This document shows positions 391-8,207 of a DNA stretch of 64,000 bases, in pieces (the first letter of the stretch is position 1; every line of letters starts with the position of its first letter). Source of the DNA: Flaviaesturariibacter aridisoli (GTDB lineage Bacteria; Bacteroidota; Bacteroidia; Chitinophagales; Chitinophagaceae); contig NZ_SKFH01000008.1 in NCBI RefSeq assembly GCF_004343705.1, forward strand, positions 1-64,000, given 5' to 3'. The notes below the pieces were generated by a model, which saw only the letters and a list, made by a program, of their open reading frames with translations, searched no databases and had not been told where the DNA came from. Made by a program: the position numbers and the translations under genes.

Positions 391-1158
391 TCAGGCGCCC
401 GCCTGGGCTTCTGCTTCGGCTTCTAATGCCGTGCCGCGGGCGCGGATGATGTTGCGGAATTTCTCGGTGTGCGCATTTACGGCGGCGATGACCTCGGGCC
501 AGGGCGCAGCACCTTCGGCTACATCCAGCTCCACCTCCAGCTTGTGCAGGAGGTTTTCATACACCTCGGGGACCGCGTTGCGGAGGTCTTCAAATGTGTA
601 CTCGCTCGTTGCCTGTGAGCGCAGGATCGTGCGCTGCAGGTAGTTGTCGTTGAAGTCGTTGTTGATGGCAGCGAGGTCGTCGCTGAAATGCGCCGCCGGC
701 AGCAGGAGGGCGGCATCGGCGGCGCCGGGTGCGGTGCGGAGGTCTTTCAGGATGCCGTTGATGGCGGACGTCTGGTCGTTGTATTCGAGCCGGCGGACAT
801 CACTGGGCGTAGGGCCGTATTTCTTGAACAGGTTTTGCAACAGGAGCGCAGCCGCCCGCTCACGGGGTTTCAGCTCATTGGCCGCATAGGCGTCGAGGAG
901 CCAATACAAGCCGCTCAGGATGCCGTCGCGCAGGGCATCGAATCGGGCGATGGCGTCGGAAAGCTGCGAGTCGGTGCTTTGCTTGTGCACCAGTTCCATT
1001 TGCGCCACCTTGGTCCGAAGCTGGTCGATAAGGGCGGCGAGCTTCACCGAGGGGGCGGGAACGAGGCGCAGGATGAGGGTGACAAGGCCTTTGAGAAACT
1101 GGATCAGTTGTCCGTTGTGGAGCCGGGCGAGGCTCAGGGATGTGGTTTTGGTTGCCAT
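391..1158 (-). CDS. hypothetical protein (255 aa, helical, no recognizable motifs)
   Basis: Long ORF with native GC and plausible ATG; no catalytic motif recognized. Confidence 0.5.
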   Translation of the reverse strand: MATKTTSLSLARLHNGQLIQFLKGLVTLILRLVPAPSVKLAALIDQLRTKVAQMELVHKQSTDSQLSDAIARFDALRDGILSGLYWLLDAYAANELKPRERAAALLLQNLFKKYGPTPSDVRRLEYNDQTSAINGILKDLRTAPGAADAALLLPAAHFSDDLAAINNDFNDNYLQRTILRSQATSEYTFEDLRNAVPEVYENLLHKLEVELDVAEGAAPWPEVIAAVNAHTEKFRNIIRARGTALEAEAEAQAGA

Positions 1159-1261
1159 AAAATGTTTGATTTAGTTTATTTAAGCTAGGCAAAAGGACGG
1201 TTCCCAGCAAACTATTTTCGGTGCAACTGATAATCAATCGGTTCTGTATGACCGCTAGCGC

Positions 1262-1501
1262 CCAACGGCTGTTTTTTGCCGCTGCGCGCTGCAGCAGCCC
1301 GCCAACGATCGTTTTTTCGTTGCTGCACGCTGCAGCAGCCTTCCGATAGCCGTTTTTTGCCCGCTGCACGGTGCACGAAGCTTCCGACGTTCGTTTTTGG
1401 GCGCTGCACGGTGCAGGAAGAAAAAAACGGGTGTTTTTTGGGTGCTGCAGCGTGTAGGAAGGGAAAAACGACCGTTTTTGCGCTGCTGCCTTGTGGAGGG
1501 G
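1262..1501. repeat. tandem array, ~41-bp unit x6
   Basis: Degenerate units, each with CGTTTTTTG followed by GCTGCACGCTGCAGCAGC (contains GCTGC/GCAGC inverted repeat). Spurious ORFs on both strands cross it. Confidence 0.85.
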
Positions 1502-1569
1502 TTCGGCGGAAGCTGGAATCTGCAAAAAGAGAGCGGAAACTGCCCATCATGAGACAGCGAATCGGAGAA

Positions 1570-1610
1570 TTTGCTTAAAATCTGCAAATAATCGAAAAAA
1601 TATGTTTGTG
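1570..1610 (+). promoter_or_regulatory. putative Bacteroidetes-type promoter for the abiL-like operon
   Basis: TATGTTTG (TAnnTTTG -7 box) at 1602-1609 with TTG upstream, ~45 bp before the ATG at 1652. Confidence 0.4.
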
Positions 1611-1651
1611 GCTTCGGCGCTCCTACTACCTTAGCAGGTATAACCCATCCT

Positions 1652-2935
1652 ATGTTTATTGATTTCAGTGTCAAGAATTTCCGTTCAATCAAGGACTTGC
1701 AGACGATCAGTTTCGTAGCGACGGGACTAAAAAGCCCGGAGCAATATGTAGAAGTGGATCGGAACAATATAGTTAACGAGGGCGAGTTGCGATTACTGAA
1801 AACGGTTGGGATTTATGGGGCTAATGCGTCAGGAAAGAGCAATGTGGTGCTAGCATTAGATCGATTCATGGAAGCTATTTGGAGCGAGGCGAGCACTGAA
1901 TCAAATCTGGACGAATTATTTCAGCCTTTTCTTTTTCAAACTGACAGGGAGAATACGGATATTTTTTTCCAAGTTAATTTTCTACTCGAAGGGAAAAAGT
2001 ATAGATACGGGTTCACGGTTAAAAAGAATATGGAATACGATGGCGATAATAAAAATAGTCGCCATATTATTTCCAGTGAGTGGCTTTTCGGGCCGAAAGA
2101 GAAAAATGTTGTCCCTCTTTTTACAAGAAAAGGACTTGAAATCAAAAAGGATAAACTAGCGAATCATGAACGTATTCCCCCTTTGCAATATCCGCACACT
2201 CTTTTTCTGACTCATGCTTCTGCGTTTGATCGTGAGAGTATTTGTACGGAAGTGAGAGAATTTCTCAGACTCTACACTTTATCGAATGTCAACTTCAAGG
2301 AGCTAGCGCTCTTCCGAAGGAGTGCATTAAATCTTATTGAAGATGAGGGACGGAAGGAACCATTTCTTGCGATGATGTCAGCCTTCGGACTGCCTTACGA
2401 CGATGTTATCGTGGAGCGTGGTGGCGATGATGATTCTAAGGTTGTGTCGTTGGATAAGATTTTTCTAACTCGAAATGTGGTTGCTTCGGATGGTAAGGTC
2501 TATCCGGTAAAATTGAATTTAGGAACAACCGAGTCGGAGGGCACTCGTAAGCTTTTCGATTTATTAGGGCTGATTTATCGCGCTTTTGATTCTGTCGATC
2601 CAGCCATGTTTATTTTGGATGAGATCGATAGCAATTTCCATCCTAGCCTTTTGATTCATCTTCTAAAGATGTTCAACAATCCTGAGATAAATAAGAGTAA
2701 TTCTCAGTTGTTATTCACAAGTCATGATACAAACTTGATGTCGCCATCAATTATGCGTAGGGATCAATTCTTCTTTGCGGAAAAGCTGGATGAGGCAACG
2801 AAGGTTTTTAGTCTGTCCGACTTAAGGGGTATTCGAAATGATGCGGATTTCGCCCGTATGTATCTTTCTGGACTGTTGGGGGCAAAGCCAATTTTGCACG
2901 ACTATAAATTTATTGATAGCGATGGAAGTAATTGA
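1652..2935 (+). CDS. AAA_21-type ATPase (AbiLi-like abortive-infection ATPase)
   Basis: N-terminal MFIDFSVKNFRSIKD..IYGANASGKSN Walker A typical of the AAA_21/AAA_15 SMC-like ATPase family. Low-GC gene in high-GC genome. Overlaps downstream RloB-like gene. Confidence 0.85.
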   Translation: MFIDFSVKNFRSIKDLQTISFVATGLKSPEQYVEVDRNNIVNEGELRLLKTVGIYGANASGKSNVVLALDRFMEAIWSEASTESNLDELFQPFLFQTDRENTDIFFQVNFLLEGKKYRYGFTVKKNMEYDGDNKNSRHIISSEWLFGPKEKNVVPLFTRKGLEIKKDKLANHERIPPLQYPHTLFLTHASAFDRESICTEVREFLRLYTLSNVNFKELALFRRSALNLIEDEGRKEPFLAMMSAFGLPYDDVIVERGGDDDSKVVSLDKIFLTRNVVASDGKVYPVKLNLGTTESEGTRKLFDLLGLIYRAFDSVDPAMFILDEIDSNFHPSLLIHLLKMFNNPEINKSNSQLLFTSHDTNLMSPSIMRRDQFFFAEKLDEATKVFSLSDLRGIRNDADFARMYLSGLLGAKPILHDYKFIDSDGSN

Positions 2936-3671
2936 ACCTTGGGATCTACAGGCTGATTCAGTTAGAAGTTCGGATACTGTTAATAATGTTATCATTTTCT
3001 GTGAAGATGATGCCGTTGAGCCAACTTACTTTCAGGACTTTGGTACCCCTAATTTGCATGTCAGTATTAATAGGAATTACAAGCAGCATCACTTTCATGT
3101 AGATGCCGTTGTAGAACATTTTCGGGCAATAGGAATGTTGGAGTTTGTAGACGGTGTAGAACGTTTGAAAATTGATGAAGGGAGTTATGTGTGGTGTGTT
3201 TTCGATCGAGATAAAGCCCCGGATAAAGCCGACGCGGCTTTCAATTTATCTATAAGGAATGCGGAAGATATGGGCGTTCGAGTTGCTTGGAGCAATGATA
3301 ATTTCGAGCTTTGGCTCCTACTACATTTTGAAAATGTTCCTTTGGATAATCCAACTTTTGAACATAGGGATACTTATTATGGTCGTTTGACTGAAATCGT
3401 TGCTGAAGGGCCAGCTGTTAATTCTGCACATCAGGCAATACTAAATCAAATTGCAGCTGGCGCTCCAACGTACAGTTATTACAATTGGATGAAGAGTGAG
3501 TCAAATTTTAAAAATGTTACTAGACATTTATTAACGGGTCTCACATCCGATGCCATACAACGGGCAAGGGCCTTACACGATCATTTCTCAACGCCAGCAA
3601 GACCACCGCACCAAATGATGCCGTGCACGCTGGTCTATCAATTGGTAGAGCAATTACTGAGCCTGCAATAA
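2922..3671 (+). CDS. RloB-like / Toprim-like protein (AbiLii-like)
   Basis: Internal ATG overlapping stop of upstream ATPase by 14 bp. VIIFCEDDAVEP and VWCVFDRD acidic motifs typical of RloB (pfam13707) Toprim-like partners of AAA_21 ATPases. Low GC. Confidence 0.7.
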   Translation: MEVIEPWDLQADSVRSSDTVNNVIIFCEDDAVEPTYFQDFGTPNLHVSINRNYKQHHFHVDAVVEHFRAIGMLEFVDGVERLKIDEGSYVWCVFDRDKAPDKADAAFNLSIRNAEDMGVRVAWSNDNFELWLLLHFENVPLDNPTFEHRDTYYGRLTEIVAEGPAVNSAHQAILNQIAAGAPTYSYYNWMKSESNFKNVTRHLLTGLTSDAIQRARALHDHFSTPARPPHQMMPCTLVYQLVEQLLSLQ

Positions 3672-3683
3672 TAACTTGTAAGC

Positions 3684-4088
3684 ATGAGGCAGGCACTCAC
3701 CTTCCGCCCCCGCTACTTCCTCCTCGCCCTCCTCCTCTTCCTCATCGAAGTACTCATCGCCCTGTACGTCAACGACTGGCTCATCCGCCCCTATGGCGGC
3801 GACTACCTCGTGGTGACCCTGCTCTACTGCGGGCTGCGGGCATTCGTCAACGTGACGCCGTGGAAGGGCGCGCTCGCCGTGCTGCTGTTTGCCTACGCCA
3901 TCGAAACAGCGCAGTATTTCGAGCTCGTGCGGCACCTGGGTCTTTCCCATAACCGCGTGGCCCGCACCGTTATCGGTACCGGCTTCGAATGGAAGGACCT
4001 GCTGGCGTATACGCTGGGCATCATCACGGTGCTGCTGCTGGAATACAGAGTGCCCGTCACCCTTCGGCTGCGCTCAGGGCGACAGTAA
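3684..4088 (+). CDS. DUF2809-like small membrane protein
   Basis: 134 aa, 3-4 TM segments, ALYVNDWLIRPYGGDYLVV motif reminiscent of DUF2809. GC back to genome level. Confidence 0.5.
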   Translation: MRQALTFRPRYFLLALLLFLIEVLIALYVNDWLIRPYGGDYLVVTLLYCGLRAFVNVTPWKGALAVLLFAYAIETAQYFELVRHLGLSHNRVARTVIGTGFEWKDLLAYTLGIITVLLLEYRVPVTLRLRSGRQ

Positions 4089-4190
4089 GCTTTACGCCGG
4101 AATCTGAAATCCTAAATCTGAGATCAGACATCCGGCATCCGATAGCTCCCGTGTGGTTTCTCCCTACCTTCCGCTTCTATTTATTTCCAT

Positions 4191-6164
4191 ATGAACAAAC
4201 GCTTTCTTGCCCTCGCGGCCCTGCTCTGGTCGGCCGTTGCCCTGGCCCAGGATCCGGATACGGCCGCACCCGCTGCCGCCGCACCCTCGCGCTACGACCA
4301 CCATGCCGTCTTCACCCCCCATTTCTATCCCTGGCCCGGCAACGAGGTACGCTCCGCTTCCGGCGCGCCCGGACCGAAGTACTGGCAAAACCGCGCCGAC
4401 TACAACATCGGCGTGACCCTCGACACCGCCCGTCATTCGGTGGGCGGCTCGGCCACGATCACGTATACCAACAATAGTCCGGACGCGCTGCCCTTTCTCT
4501 GGCTGCAGCTCGATCAGAACATCTACCAGGCCGGCTCCCGCGCCACCGCCACCACCACGCAGGCCGGCGGCCGCTGGGCCAACCCCGCCTTCACCGCCGG
4601 CGATTCGCTGCTGAGCGTGCAGCTGGATATGGGCGGACAAAAAGGAACGCCGCAATACAGCATCACCGATACCCGCATGCAGGTGTTCCTGCCGCAGCCG
4701 CTGGCGCCCGGCGCCAAGCTGAGCCTGACGGTATCCTACAACTTCAGCATCCCCGAGCGCGGCACCGACCGCATGGGCCGCATGCGCACCAGCAATGGCT
4801 GGATCTACGCCATTGCCCAGTGGTTTCCCCGCATGGCGGTTTACGACGACATCTACGGCTGGAACACGCTGCCCTACCTCGGCGCCGGTGAGTTCTACCT
4901 CGAATACGGCGACATCACCTACAGCATCACGGCGCCGTCCAACCTCATCGTGGCCGGCTCGGGCACGCTGCTCAACGAAAGCGAAGTGCTCACCGCCGAG
5001 CAGGTGGCCCGCCTCGCGCAGGCCCGCAATTCGGACAAGACCGTCGCCATCCGCGCCGCCAAGGAAGTGACCAGCAAAAGCTCGCGCCCCACGGGTGGCT
5101 CGCTGACCTGGCGCTTCCGCATCGATAACGCCCGCGACGCGGCCTGGACCGCCTCGCGCGCTTTCGTGTGGGACGCCGCCCGCATCAACCTGCCTTCGGG
5201 CAAGAAGGCCCTGGCCCAGAGCGTGTACCCCGTGGAAAGCATCCGCAAGGACGGCTGGCAGCGCGGCACCGAGTTCACCAAGGCTTCGATCGAATACTAC
5301 TCCAACCAGTGGTTCGAGTTTCCCTACCCCGTGGCTACCAACGTGGCCTGCAACGTAGCCGGCATGGAATACCCCGGCATCGTATTCTGCAGCGCCGGCG
5401 ACTCGGGCGGCGACCTCTGGGGCGTAACGGACCACGAGTTCGGCCATACCTGGTTCCCGATGATCGTGGGTTCCAACGAGCGCAAGTATGCCTGGATGGA
5501 CGAAGGCTTCAACACCTTCATCAACGACGGCTCCACGAAAGCCTTCAACAAGGGTGAATTCGCCGGCACCGCGATCGGCTCCGGCGACGAGATGAACCAG
5601 TACATTTTCAGCGGCCATATGGACCCGCTGTGGACGGTGCCCGACGTGGTGCAGCAGTCGAATCTGGGCATCACGGCCTACTTCAAGCCGGGGATGATGC
5701 TGACGGCGCTGCGCGAGGTGGTGCTCGGCCCCGAGCGCTTCGACCGCGCCTTCCGCACCTACGTCGCGCGTTGGGCCTTCAAGCACCCCACCCCCTGGGA
5801 TTTCTTCCATACGATGGAGAACGTGAGCGGTGAAGACCTCGGCTGGTTCTGGCGCGGCTGGGTGTTCGACAACTGGCAGCTCGACCAGGCCGTGACCGGC
5901 GTCAAGTACAACAGCAACGACCCGTCGAAAGGCGCCTCCATCCAGATCGAGAACCGCGGCGAGATGGCCATGCCGGTGCCGGTGCTGGTCAAGGAAAGCA
6001 ACGGCAAGACTCATCGCCTCACCCTGCCCGTGGAAGTATGGCAGCGCGGCGGCAAGTGGGCCTTCACCGTACCCAGCACGAGCAACATCACCGAGGTCAC
6101 CATCGACCCCGACAAGAAGCTGCCGGATGTGAACCGCAAAAACAACAACCTGAAGCCGTTCTGA
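4191..6164 (+). CDS. secreted M1-family zinc metallopeptidase (aminopeptidase N-like)
   Basis: Signal peptide [19 protein letters not shown]; HEFGHTWF..18..WMDEGFNTF gluzincin HEXXH-E motif. Confidence 0.85.
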
Positions 6165-6649: not shown

Positions 6650-7108
6650 ATGCGTCCGGTGATTGTTGGTTTTGGTTTGTTGATCCTGTGCCTGCTCCTG
6701 TTCTTCCGGATCGCGGAACTGCAGGTTTGGCAGGGGAATGTGCGGCTGGAGGTAATCGTGGCGGTGGCGGCGGTGCTGTTCTTTTTCATCGGGGTGTATT
6801 TCAACCGGAAGGCGGAAGGACCGGCTGCTAAGACCGGTACGTCCGGAAGCGATGTGCCCGCTGCGCCTGCGGAAGGGTCGACGCCGGTAGCGGCCGCAGA
6901 GGCCGCGCGGGCTGCCGGGCTCACCGGGCGCGAGCTGGAGGTGCTGCAAAAAATGGCCGAAGGCCTCAGCAATGCCGGGATCGGCGCGGCCCTCTACCTG
7001 TCGGAAAGCACGGTGAAGACCCACGTGTCGAACATCCTCTTCAAACTCGATGCCCCGCGGCGCGGTGCGGCCGTGCAGGCCGCCCGCGCCCGCGGAATCC
7101 TTTCCTGA
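6650..7108 (+). CDS. LuxR-family HTH transcriptional regulator with N-terminal membrane segment
   Basis: C-terminal LTGRELEVLQKMAEGLSNAGIGAALYLSESTVKTHVSNILFKL is a LuxR/GerE HTH. N-terminal TM helices. Confidence 0.75.
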   Translation: MRPVIVGFGLLILCLLLFFRIAELQVWQGNVRLEVIVAVAAVLFFFIGVYFNRKAEGPAAKTGTSGSDVPAAPAEGSTPVAAAEAARAAGLTGRELEVLQKMAEGLSNAGIGAALYLSESTVKTHVSNILFKLDAPRRGAAVQAARARGILS

Positions 7109-7200: not shown

Positions 7201-7701
7201 ATGAAAAAAGTGTCTTTCCGCTACGGCTCCTTCGGTCTCCTAGTCATTATCCTGCTCAGCGCGCTCTCGATGAGCCTCCTCGGCTGCGACCACCCCTACA
7301 GCGAAGCGGCCGGTTACCTTACGATCCTGTTGTCGATGGTCTTTGTATTTTTCGGGCTCCGGCACTTCCGCAACGAGGTCAACGGCGGCTACCTCGGTTT
7401 CGGCCAGGGCATGAAGGTCGGCGGGCTGATCGTGCTCGTTCCGGCGGTGGGCTTCGGGCTGTTCGATATCCTTTACACCCGCGTGATCAACCCCTCCTGG
7501 AGCGCCAACTATACGGCCCGGATGACCGCCAACATGGACGCGGCCCAGAAGGAGGCCTTCGCGAAGCAAATGGCGCTATTCTCCAACCCGCTGTTCGAGT
7601 TTGCCCTGATGACCGCCACGGTGCTCATCGTCGGCGTCATCGTCACCATCATCTCCACGCTCGCGCTGATGCGGAAGCCGAAGAAGCAGTTTGTCGTTTG
7701 A
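7201..7701 (+). CDS. DUF4199-like integral membrane protein
   Basis: 166 aa, four hydrophobic segments; commonly paired with LuxR-type regulators in Bacteroidota. Confidence 0.5.
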   Translation: MKKVSFRYGSFGLLVIILLSALSMSLLGCDHPYSEAAGYLTILLSMVFVFFGLRHFRNEVNGGYLGFGQGMKVGGLIVLVPAVGFGLFDILYTRVINPSWSANYTARMTANMDAAQKEAFAKQMALFSNPLFEFALMTATVLIVGVIVTIISTLALMRKPKKQFVV

Positions 7702-7787
7702 AGTTTTTGGTTTGTAGTTTAGCTTGAACGCGGCAGCGCCGGCATTACTTACCGGCGTTGTATGCATTCGATGTACCCAAAATAAAC

Positions 7788-8207
7788 ATGATGAAAAAAG
7801 TGACCGGATTAGGCGGAGTGTTCTTTAAAGCAAAAGACCCCGCAGCCCTGCAGGCCTGGTATGAGCAGCACCTCGGCCTCAAGAAAAGCCCCTTCGGCGT
7901 GCTCTTCGGCTGGCGCCCCTTCGACAAGCCCGGGGAAAAGGCCTGTACCCTGTGGACGCCCTTCAAGGAGTCTACCGATTACTTCGGATCAGGAGACCAG
8001 TCGTTCATGATCAATTACCGCGTGGAGAACCTGGAAGCCCTGCTCGCGGAGCTGCAGGCCGCCGGCGTGACCATGGCGGGCGAGATGCAGACCTACGACT
8101 ACGGCAAGTTCGGCTGGATCATCGATCCCGAAGGCCGTAAGATCGAGCTCTGGGAGCCCATCGGCGGCACCTTCGGCGATATGGCGCAGGAGCATTCGAT
8201 TTATTAG
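7788..8207 (+). CDS. VOC family protein (glyoxalase/bleomycin-resistance fold)
   Basis: MMKKVTGLGGVFFKAKDP...KIELWEP pattern typical of small VOC proteins. Start chosen at internal Met 7788. Confidence 0.7.
   Translation: MMKKVTGLGGVFFKAKDPAALQAWYEQHLGLKKSPFGVLFGWRPFDKPGEKACTLWTPFKESTDYFGSGDQSFMINYRVENLEALLAELQAAGVTMAGEMQTYDYGKFGWIIDPEGRKIELWEPIGGTFGDMAQEHSIY

Follow-up and report, generated by a model that had tools for sequence, protein, structure and literature searches.

The 64,000-nt stretch of Flaviaesturariibacter aridisoli (Chitinophagaceae) DNA analysed here, contig NZ_SKFH01000008.1 and hereafter called the window, carries between about positions 1463 and 3695 a cassette of two genes, abiLi and abiLii, which we read with a probability of about 85% as an intact, horizontally acquired AbiL-type module. 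The same probability is given to the cassette being a promoter-bearing two-gene unit for an AbiL-type abortive-infection or anti-phage system. The cassette is an acquired islet on two independent grounds, its composition and an empty site in relatives. Its protein products are each 100% identical to F. aridisoli proteins at NCBI, where they are labelled 'AAA family ATPase' and 'RloB family protein', and as a defence system the pair is unremarkable, belonging to a known family that PADLOC or DefenseFinder would call AbiL. The coordinates of the features are collected in Table 1.

AbiLi matches Pfam AAA_21 at 3.5e-27 (96.7 bits, cut-off 27), and its top PADLOC match, with the next model far behind, is PDLC02335 AbiLi at 1.1e-75 (252.7 bits). 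A first-pass annotation made from the DNA letters had described this product as an AAA_21-type ATPase with a GANASGKSN P-loop, which these matches bear out. The P-loop is the Walker A motif G56-N64 (residues 56-64; nt 1817-1843) and is accompanied by a signature motif at S295-G297, a Walker B motif at D323-E324 and an H-loop histidine, H358; read at the level of residues, all four ATPase motifs are intact. Across 24 homologues, residues G56, N58, S60-N64, S295, G297, D323, E324 and H358 are invariant, and at least 90% of the sequences share A57. A sequence search of the PDB returned no match for AbiLi. The AlphaFold2 model of the protein (predicted local distance difference test score 80) resembles the ATPase heads of Rad50, SMC and PtuA at an E value of 1e-10.

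The start of abiLii overlaps the stop of abiLi by exactly 14 nt (2922-2935), as had been claimed for the two open reading frames, and the start at 2922 is backed by the N-termini of homologues as well as by the length of the NCBI protein (249 aa). Neither gene is disrupted, and their translation is coupled. AbiLii scores well above the Pfam gathering threshold for RloB (1.4e-31, 110.7 bits, cut-off 31.5), and its sole PADLOC match is PDLC02337 AbiLii at 6.6e-23. The acidic motifs noted earlier for an RloB-like protein are likewise in place: VIIFCEDD at residues 23-30 includes E28 (nt 3003-3005), VWCVFDRD at residues 90-97 includes D95 and D97 (within nt 3189-3212), and E33 and E129 are further acidic positions. 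Among homologues, the acidic residues of the putative Toprim-type E...DxD set do not vary. For AbiLii, the PDB gave no match by sequence and only noise by Foldseek, and NCBIfam gave no match for any of the four proteins searched. Membership of AbiL was judged from the PADLOC models as a proxy for the prototype proteins of Lactococcus lactis plasmid pND861. With both AbiL models as the best matches and both Pfam domains recovered, the AbiLi/AbiLii architecture proposed in the first-pass annotation held in the PADLOC and Pfam checks.

It is very improbable that the system is PARIS (AriA/AriB) or Gabija/OLD rather than AbiL. These systems do share the logic of an ABC ATPase combined with a Toprim protein, and AbiLi matches the PADLOC model 'AriA' at 4e-26 and GajA weakly, at only 3.4e-4. 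Yet the 'AriA' match falls at the same coordinates as the generic AAA_21 match and lies about 160 bits below the AbiLi match, the second gene matches RloB/AbiLii only, and DUF4435 or Toprim_OLD matches were found in 0/31 homologues. In addition, ATPase and nuclease are encoded by separate genes instead of as the fused ATPase-Toprim protein of OLD and Gabija, and no GajB-type helicase gene, as Gabija would have, is adjacent.

The composition and codon usage of the AbiL pair are foreign. Low GC starts near position 1511, and positions 1511-3683 form the single deep GC trough in the 64 kb, so that the AT-rich stretch reported earlier is confirmed at 41% GC against 59.9% in the remaining window, with no second trough of its kind. 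GC is 40.9% in abiLi, 41.2% in abiLii and 43.3% in the leader (1511-1651). The 2-kb segment of minimum GC starts at 1601 and, at 41.0%, lies 8.8 standard deviations under the other 2-kb segments. GC content at third codon positions (GC3) is 0.42 for abiLi and 0.34 for abiLii, compared with 0.78-0.88 in three flanking genes.

The second ground for an acquired islet is the comparison of the flanks. A Chitinophagaceae contig of 1136 bp from a metagenome-assembled genome (MAG), L081, is 89% identical to the window over the tandem array to the left of the cassette (window 1241-1462) and 93% identical over the DUF2809 gene and beyond to its right (window 3696-4294). Between these matching blocks L081 has 314 bp of unrelated sequence (54% GC; L081 224-537) versus 2233 bp in the window. 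The 314-bp segment holds no convincing open reading frame and has no Rfam match; an ancestral spacer and a remnant of other cargo are both candidates for what it represents. In F. terrae, the DUF2809 and M1 peptidase genes are kept without AbiL and are preceded by three other genes, and in a further locus, L091, the same two genes are found without AbiL and with an isochorismatase gene in that place. L081, F. terrae and L091 are each filled differently, so the contents of the interval before DUF2809 vary, and AbiL is one such filling, specific to its lineage. Between about 1463 and 3695, the AbiL cassette thus represents a recent replacement or insertion; it combines atypical composition with absence from the same site in close relatives, including a contig about 93% identical, and is not conserved core content of these genomes. 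The recent horizontal acquisition that the first-pass annotation thought likely is thus supported from both sides. Another 80 Chitinophagaceae loci were found with the M1 peptidase, none of them with DUF2809, DUF6261 or AbiL upstream; since they reach at most 71% amino-acid identity and are too distant, they are unusable as empty sites.

The cassette appears to have landed against the start codon of DUF2809, and DUF2809 therefore uses an ATG on the cassette side. Homology to the relatives resumes at 3696 (CTCACC...), right after the position of their ATG, and the protein begins MRQA-LTF in the window, M-LTF in L081 and M-LRF in F. terrae. The ancestral ATG of DUF2809 was lost at the junction, and the in-frame ATG 12 nt upstream is used instead. 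Beyond this remodelled start the DUF2809 protein is 95% identical to that of L081 and 78% identical to that of F. terrae. As a terminator scan gave no terminator-like site between abiLii and DUF2809, DUF2809 is probably read through from the abiL promoter.

On the left side, the AT-rich leader of abiLi was compared with that of the closest AbiL relative, locus L083. An inverted repeat, ATTTGC-N9-GCAAAT (about 1570-1589), is conserved in the L083 leader (about 45-65), as is CTACCTTAG (about 1626-1634 in the window). Because these blocks align, the leader arrived with the genes, which places the left junction between 1463 and about 1565. The inverted repeat may act as an operator for the cassette or as an element of its promoter. 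A box at 1601-1608, TATGTTTG, fits the Bacteroidota -7 consensus; no aligned counterpart of it was found in the L083 leader. The pattern TAnnTTTG occurs 20 times in the window against 15.5 expected, which is no significant enrichment, and the candidate promoter box therefore carries no statistical weight by itself. A scan for sigma-70 promoters, whose consensus differs from the promoter type of the host, and for terminators returned no more sites than shuffled sequence. The leader is the putative promoter region of the cassette.

The AbiL pair occurs together, with overlapping or abutting stop and start codons, in all five homologous loci examined (L083, L084, L086, L087 and L088). The contexts of these five range from housekeeping neighbours to defence-type genes, and the nearest AbiLii relative sits in a defence-type neighbourhood with a KAP NTPase gene and MmeI fragments. 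GC of the pair is below that of the flanks in four of the five loci and equal in the fifth. The closest relatives, all from low-GC Bacteroidota, are at most 60% identical for AbiLi and at most 50% for AbiLii. Relatives are also found on about 175 plasmids, the closest on a Prevotella replicon at 51%, and one plasmid homologue of AbiLi is annotated RloA. PHROG families match both AbiLi and AbiLii, and phage-borne relatives therefore exist. As a separate observation, the pair in the metagenomic lineage L088 (3072-8082) directly follows AAA_25, Zn-ribbon/DUF6371 and small-ORF (open reading frame) genes, a context that looks like a small integrative or satellite-like element with AbiL as cargo.

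This distribution also bears on whether the AbiL pair serves chiefly its own persistence in the genome, as an addiction module of the toxin-antitoxin type in which an AAA ATPase neutralises a Toprim toxin and which has no dedicated anti-phage role. Pairs of an AAA protein and a TOPRIM_OLD protein act as antitoxin and toxin in neutralisation assays (PMC10440598); moreover, the cassette consists of nothing but two translationally coupled genes and their leader, and relatives are common on small plasmids. On the other hand, prototype AbiL as well as PARIS, OLD and Gabija are experimentally anti-phage (PMC13064643, PMC11464382), the closest AbiLii relative lies amid the defence-type genes named above, and abortive infection can go together with a toxin-antitoxin mode. 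A purely addictive role is therefore considered unlikely, and an anti-phage module is the preferred reading.

How such a module would work can be sketched by analogy. AbiL has been grouped with PARIS, OLD, Gabija and MADS as systems of an ABC ATPase (AAA_15/21) and a TOPRIM nuclease (PMC11464382, PMC13064643). HHpred links RloB to OLD_TOPRIM, and TOPRIM_OLD toxins are neutralised by their AAA partners in assays (PMC10440598). In PARIS, an ATPase hexamer sequesters the nuclease, a phage protein triggers its release and the nuclease cleaves tRNA (PMC11464382, PMC13064643); a PARIS-like mode has been proposed for AbiL and is still an open question (PMC13064643, PMC11464382). In a corresponding sequence of events, to which we give an even chance, AbiLi would oligomerise and hold AbiLii inactive, acting as sensor and antitoxin in one. 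A phage-derived cue sensed by the AbiLi ATPase would release or activate AbiLii as a metal-dependent Toprim nuclease, which might then cut host or phage nucleic acid, either tRNA as AriB does or DNA as OLD and GajA do. By this cleavage the infected cell would be sacrificed and phage production stopped. No structure or mechanism of AbiL has been published (no relative was found in the PDB by sequence), and any well-behaved homologue of the Bacteroidota clade could therefore help to test the PARIS-like mode.

Several points weigh against the reading of the cassette as an acquired anti-phage module. The near-identical empty site is known from one 1136-bp MAG contig only, and the direction, gain here versus loss there, rests on composition and not on an outgroup sharing the left flank. 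The cassette is also devoid of any mobility signature: between the flanks there is no integrase or transposase gene, the nearest tRNA genes are at 18.1 kb with no tRNA target close by, and the best flanking direct repeat, a 12-mer with 10/12 matches (ATCATGAGACAG / AGCATGAGGCAG), is equalled in 47/300 shuffles and was dismissed as a target-site duplication at this chance level. The anti-phage activity of this clade is assumed from membership in hidden Markov model families, and the substrate of the nuclease and the trigger are taken by analogy. The acquisition looks like a recombinational replacement, in which about 0.3 kb of intergenic sequence was exchanged without any dedicated mobility gene, and not like element-encoded integration.

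The tandem array to the left of the cassette had been described as six copies of 41 bp immediately upstream of the genes and was included in the coordinates given for the finding. The period of 41 bp stands; the sixth copy is decayed, about 160 bp separate the end of the array from the abiLi ATG, and the array does not belong to the islet. Tandem Repeats Finder (TRF) reported 3.6 copies at 1271-1416 and 2.4 copies at 1392-1489, with period 41 and 74-75% matches, and a repeat search gave five in-register copies, 62-76% identical to the first and spaced by 41, 41, 40 and 41 bp. The array is thus degenerate, with five clear units and a decayed sixth, and its GC of 57-58% is host-like. Its core reads GCTGCAC-NN-TGCAG(G/C)AAG. 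The core was found nowhere else in the 64 kb, and a dispersed genomic repeat was rejected on this ground. A known RNA was also rejected, as no Rfam match was obtained in the window, in L081 or in four array loci.

The position of the array, with about six units of 41 bp upstream of the pair in the same intergenic region, invites comparison with the repetitive ToxI RNA antitoxin or regulator of type III ToxIN/AbiQ-like systems. Folding is compatible with such a role, since the array folds far better as RNA than shuffled sequence (z -7.4 for the + strand and -6.0 for the - strand), giving a long imperfect hairpin. The array is however neither inherited with nor specific to a toxin gene, as a type III toxin-antitoxin system would require. 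It is kept at 89% in L081, which is without AbiL, and no tandem array stands upstream of AbiL in the five other AbiL loci (0/5). Its units are degenerate, unlike those of ToxI, its GC is that of the host, distant lineages have arrays of this type beside their DUF6261 genes with the orientation fixed, and AbiLii is not a ToxN/AbiQ-type RNase according to Pfam and PADLOC. A ToxI-like role is therefore already contradicted and is given almost no probability. Because L081 keeps the array without AbiL, five AbiL loci lack it and it is associated with DUF6261 elsewhere, the AbiL cassette does not include the array, which is host sequence tied to the divergent DUF6261 gene and lies outside the module.

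The association with DUF6261 emerged from a scan with the array-core pattern, which gave 79 loci from metagenomes and, with a slightly relaxed pattern, two from viral contigs, 81 loci in all. True arrays with a period of 39-42 bp and 2-14 copies are present in 25/81 of these loci, which were chosen by the core pattern, so that only gene association and periodicity are independent observations. The 25 arrays share the core CTGCA-N3-TGCAG with flanking GGAAG and have array-specific linkers. From their number, the repeats appear to form a widespread class. In seven of the 25 loci the array precedes a DUF6261 gene at 40-470 bp, with the 5' end of the gene turned towards it, the geometry seen in the window; the products of these genes are 19-29% identical to the window protein and represent at least four lineages, and the set that includes the window array spans at least five. 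Members of the class are found apart from DUF6261 as well (L120 709-1094, L141 4899-5202, L146 1378-1721, L137 2445-2707, L117 1466-2061 and others), reaching 14 copies; in contigs of gut Bacteroidales, for instance, they sit between a gene for an ITPase and one for a lipoprotein-like protein of 765 aa. The DUF6261 protein itself gave no match in PADLOC, PHROGs, NCBIfam or the PDB, and no relatives were recovered by metagenome scan, plasmid tblastn or viral scans; the link to the arrays came from the DNA-pattern scan of the core. No DUF6261 gene was found among the 80 Chitinophagaceae loci (about 1.2 Mb).

Within the window array the two halves, 1291-1375 and 1405-1489, show 74% complementarity across 85 nt, the T-runs of units on the left pairing with the A-runs of those on the right, and the whole array can therefore adopt a hairpin or cruciform structure of about 100 bp. 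Tentatively, the arrays are proposed to be an undescribed, widespread Bacteroidota class with a period of 41-42 bp upstream of DUF6261 genes in fixed orientation, with units that have in common a palindromic core, CTTCCTGCA-NN-GTGCAGC, about four helical turns apart, and linkers specific to each array. Such arrays may serve the DUF6261 family as a phased operator or a transcribed hairpin array and might possibly be a structure-prone site favouring the insertion of foreign cassettes such as AbiL. On this reading the array, and not the AbiL pair, is the more unusual object of the locus. Its association with DUF6261 offers a modest clue to a gene family that is still uncharacterised.

Table 1. 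Features of the AbiL locus and arrays upstream of DUF6261 genes in other loci (positions refer to the window unless a locus is named)
Feature	Position	Strand	Description
DUF6261 family host gene, left flank	391..1158	-	255 aa; Pfam DUF6261 6.3e-17; GC3 0.78; 5' end faces array
41-bp tandem array	1271..1489	.	Host backbone; core GCTGCAC-NN-TGCAG(G/C)AAG; TRF and repeat search
Left junction zone	1463..1510	.	Decayed sixth repeat unit absent from L081; L081 homology stops at about 1462 (alignment, blastn)
AT-rich leader	1511..1651	+	Imported with the cassette; partial alignment to L083 leader
abiLi	1652..2935	+	ABC-type (Rad50/SMC-like) ATPase, 427 aa
abiLii	2922..3671	+	RloB-family, Toprim-like putative nuclease, 249 aa
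Right junction	3672..3695	+	12 nt from abiLii stop to new ATG 3684; alignment of window, L081 and F. terrae, blastn, terminator scan
DUF2809 family host gene	3684..4088	+	134 aa; Pfam DUF2809 2.3e-25
LuxR-type regulator	6650-7108		Within segment 6145-8387
Membrane protein	7201-7701		Within segment 6145-8387
VOC-like protein	7758-8207		Within segment 6145-8387
Array upstream of DUF6261	L139 5076-5196		Period 41-42 bp
Array upstream of DUF6261	L148 6377-6488		Period 41-42 bp
Array upstream of DUF6261	L136 4858-5020		Period 41-42 bp
Array upstream of DUF6261	L122 4375-4555		Period 41-42 bp
Array upstream of DUF6261	L152 1586-1740		Period 41-42 bp
Array upstream of DUF6261	L123 7089-7169		Period 41-42 bp
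Array upstream of DUF6261	L155 8560-8784		Period 41-42 bp

Further to the right, F. terrae (L082) has nothing corresponding to the window segment 6145-8387 at the syntenic position. LuxR and membrane genes are present after the M1 peptidase in the more distant loci L043, L045 and L052, which suggests loss or replacement of the segment in F. terrae.

The new results of the analysis are the mapped junctions with their empty site, the remodelled start of DUF2809 and the reassignment of the array to DUF6261. The locus is a clean minimal example of its kind, 2.2 kb of leader and two genes with both junctions located to a few tens of bases by comparison with an empty site. It shows that such modules move without mobility genes of their own and can rewire the start codon of a neighbour.

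Among the known systems, the OLD nucleases (P2 Old, class 2 OLD) and GajA of Gabija differ in that ATPase and Toprim domains are fused there and encoded by two genes here, and sequence similarity of AbiLi or AbiLii to proteins of the OLD family or GajA was undetectable in PDB sequence searches. Gabija differs further by its helicase partner, the neighbours here being DUF6261 and DUF2809. RloA/RloB of Campylobacter type I restriction-modification loci share the Pfam RloB family and an ATPase partner with the present pair, whereas the direct flanks here are DUF6261, DUF2809 and M1 peptidase genes and not hsd genes. PARIS, the mechanistic template studied in most depth, is alike in its split into an ABC ATPase (AriA) and a Toprim effector (AriB, a DUF4435 tRNase), but the effector here is RloB and not DUF4435, and AbiLii and AriB are reported to have no significant sequence similarity and to superimpose poorly in structure (PMC13064643). 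The match is with AbiL of the L. lactis plasmid pND861, as represented in PADLOC and DefenseFinder, an operon of an AAA_21/Rad50-like ABC ATPase gene followed by a gene for an RloB-family Toprim-like protein; the present genes are likewise adjacent, co-directional and operonic, with their 14-nt overlap and the same arrangement in five loci. Compared with the Lactococcus system, the present pair is chromosomal, resides in a high-GC Chitinophagaceae host and belongs to a Bacteroidota subclade, with nearest relatives at 60% (AbiLi) and 50% (AbiLii).

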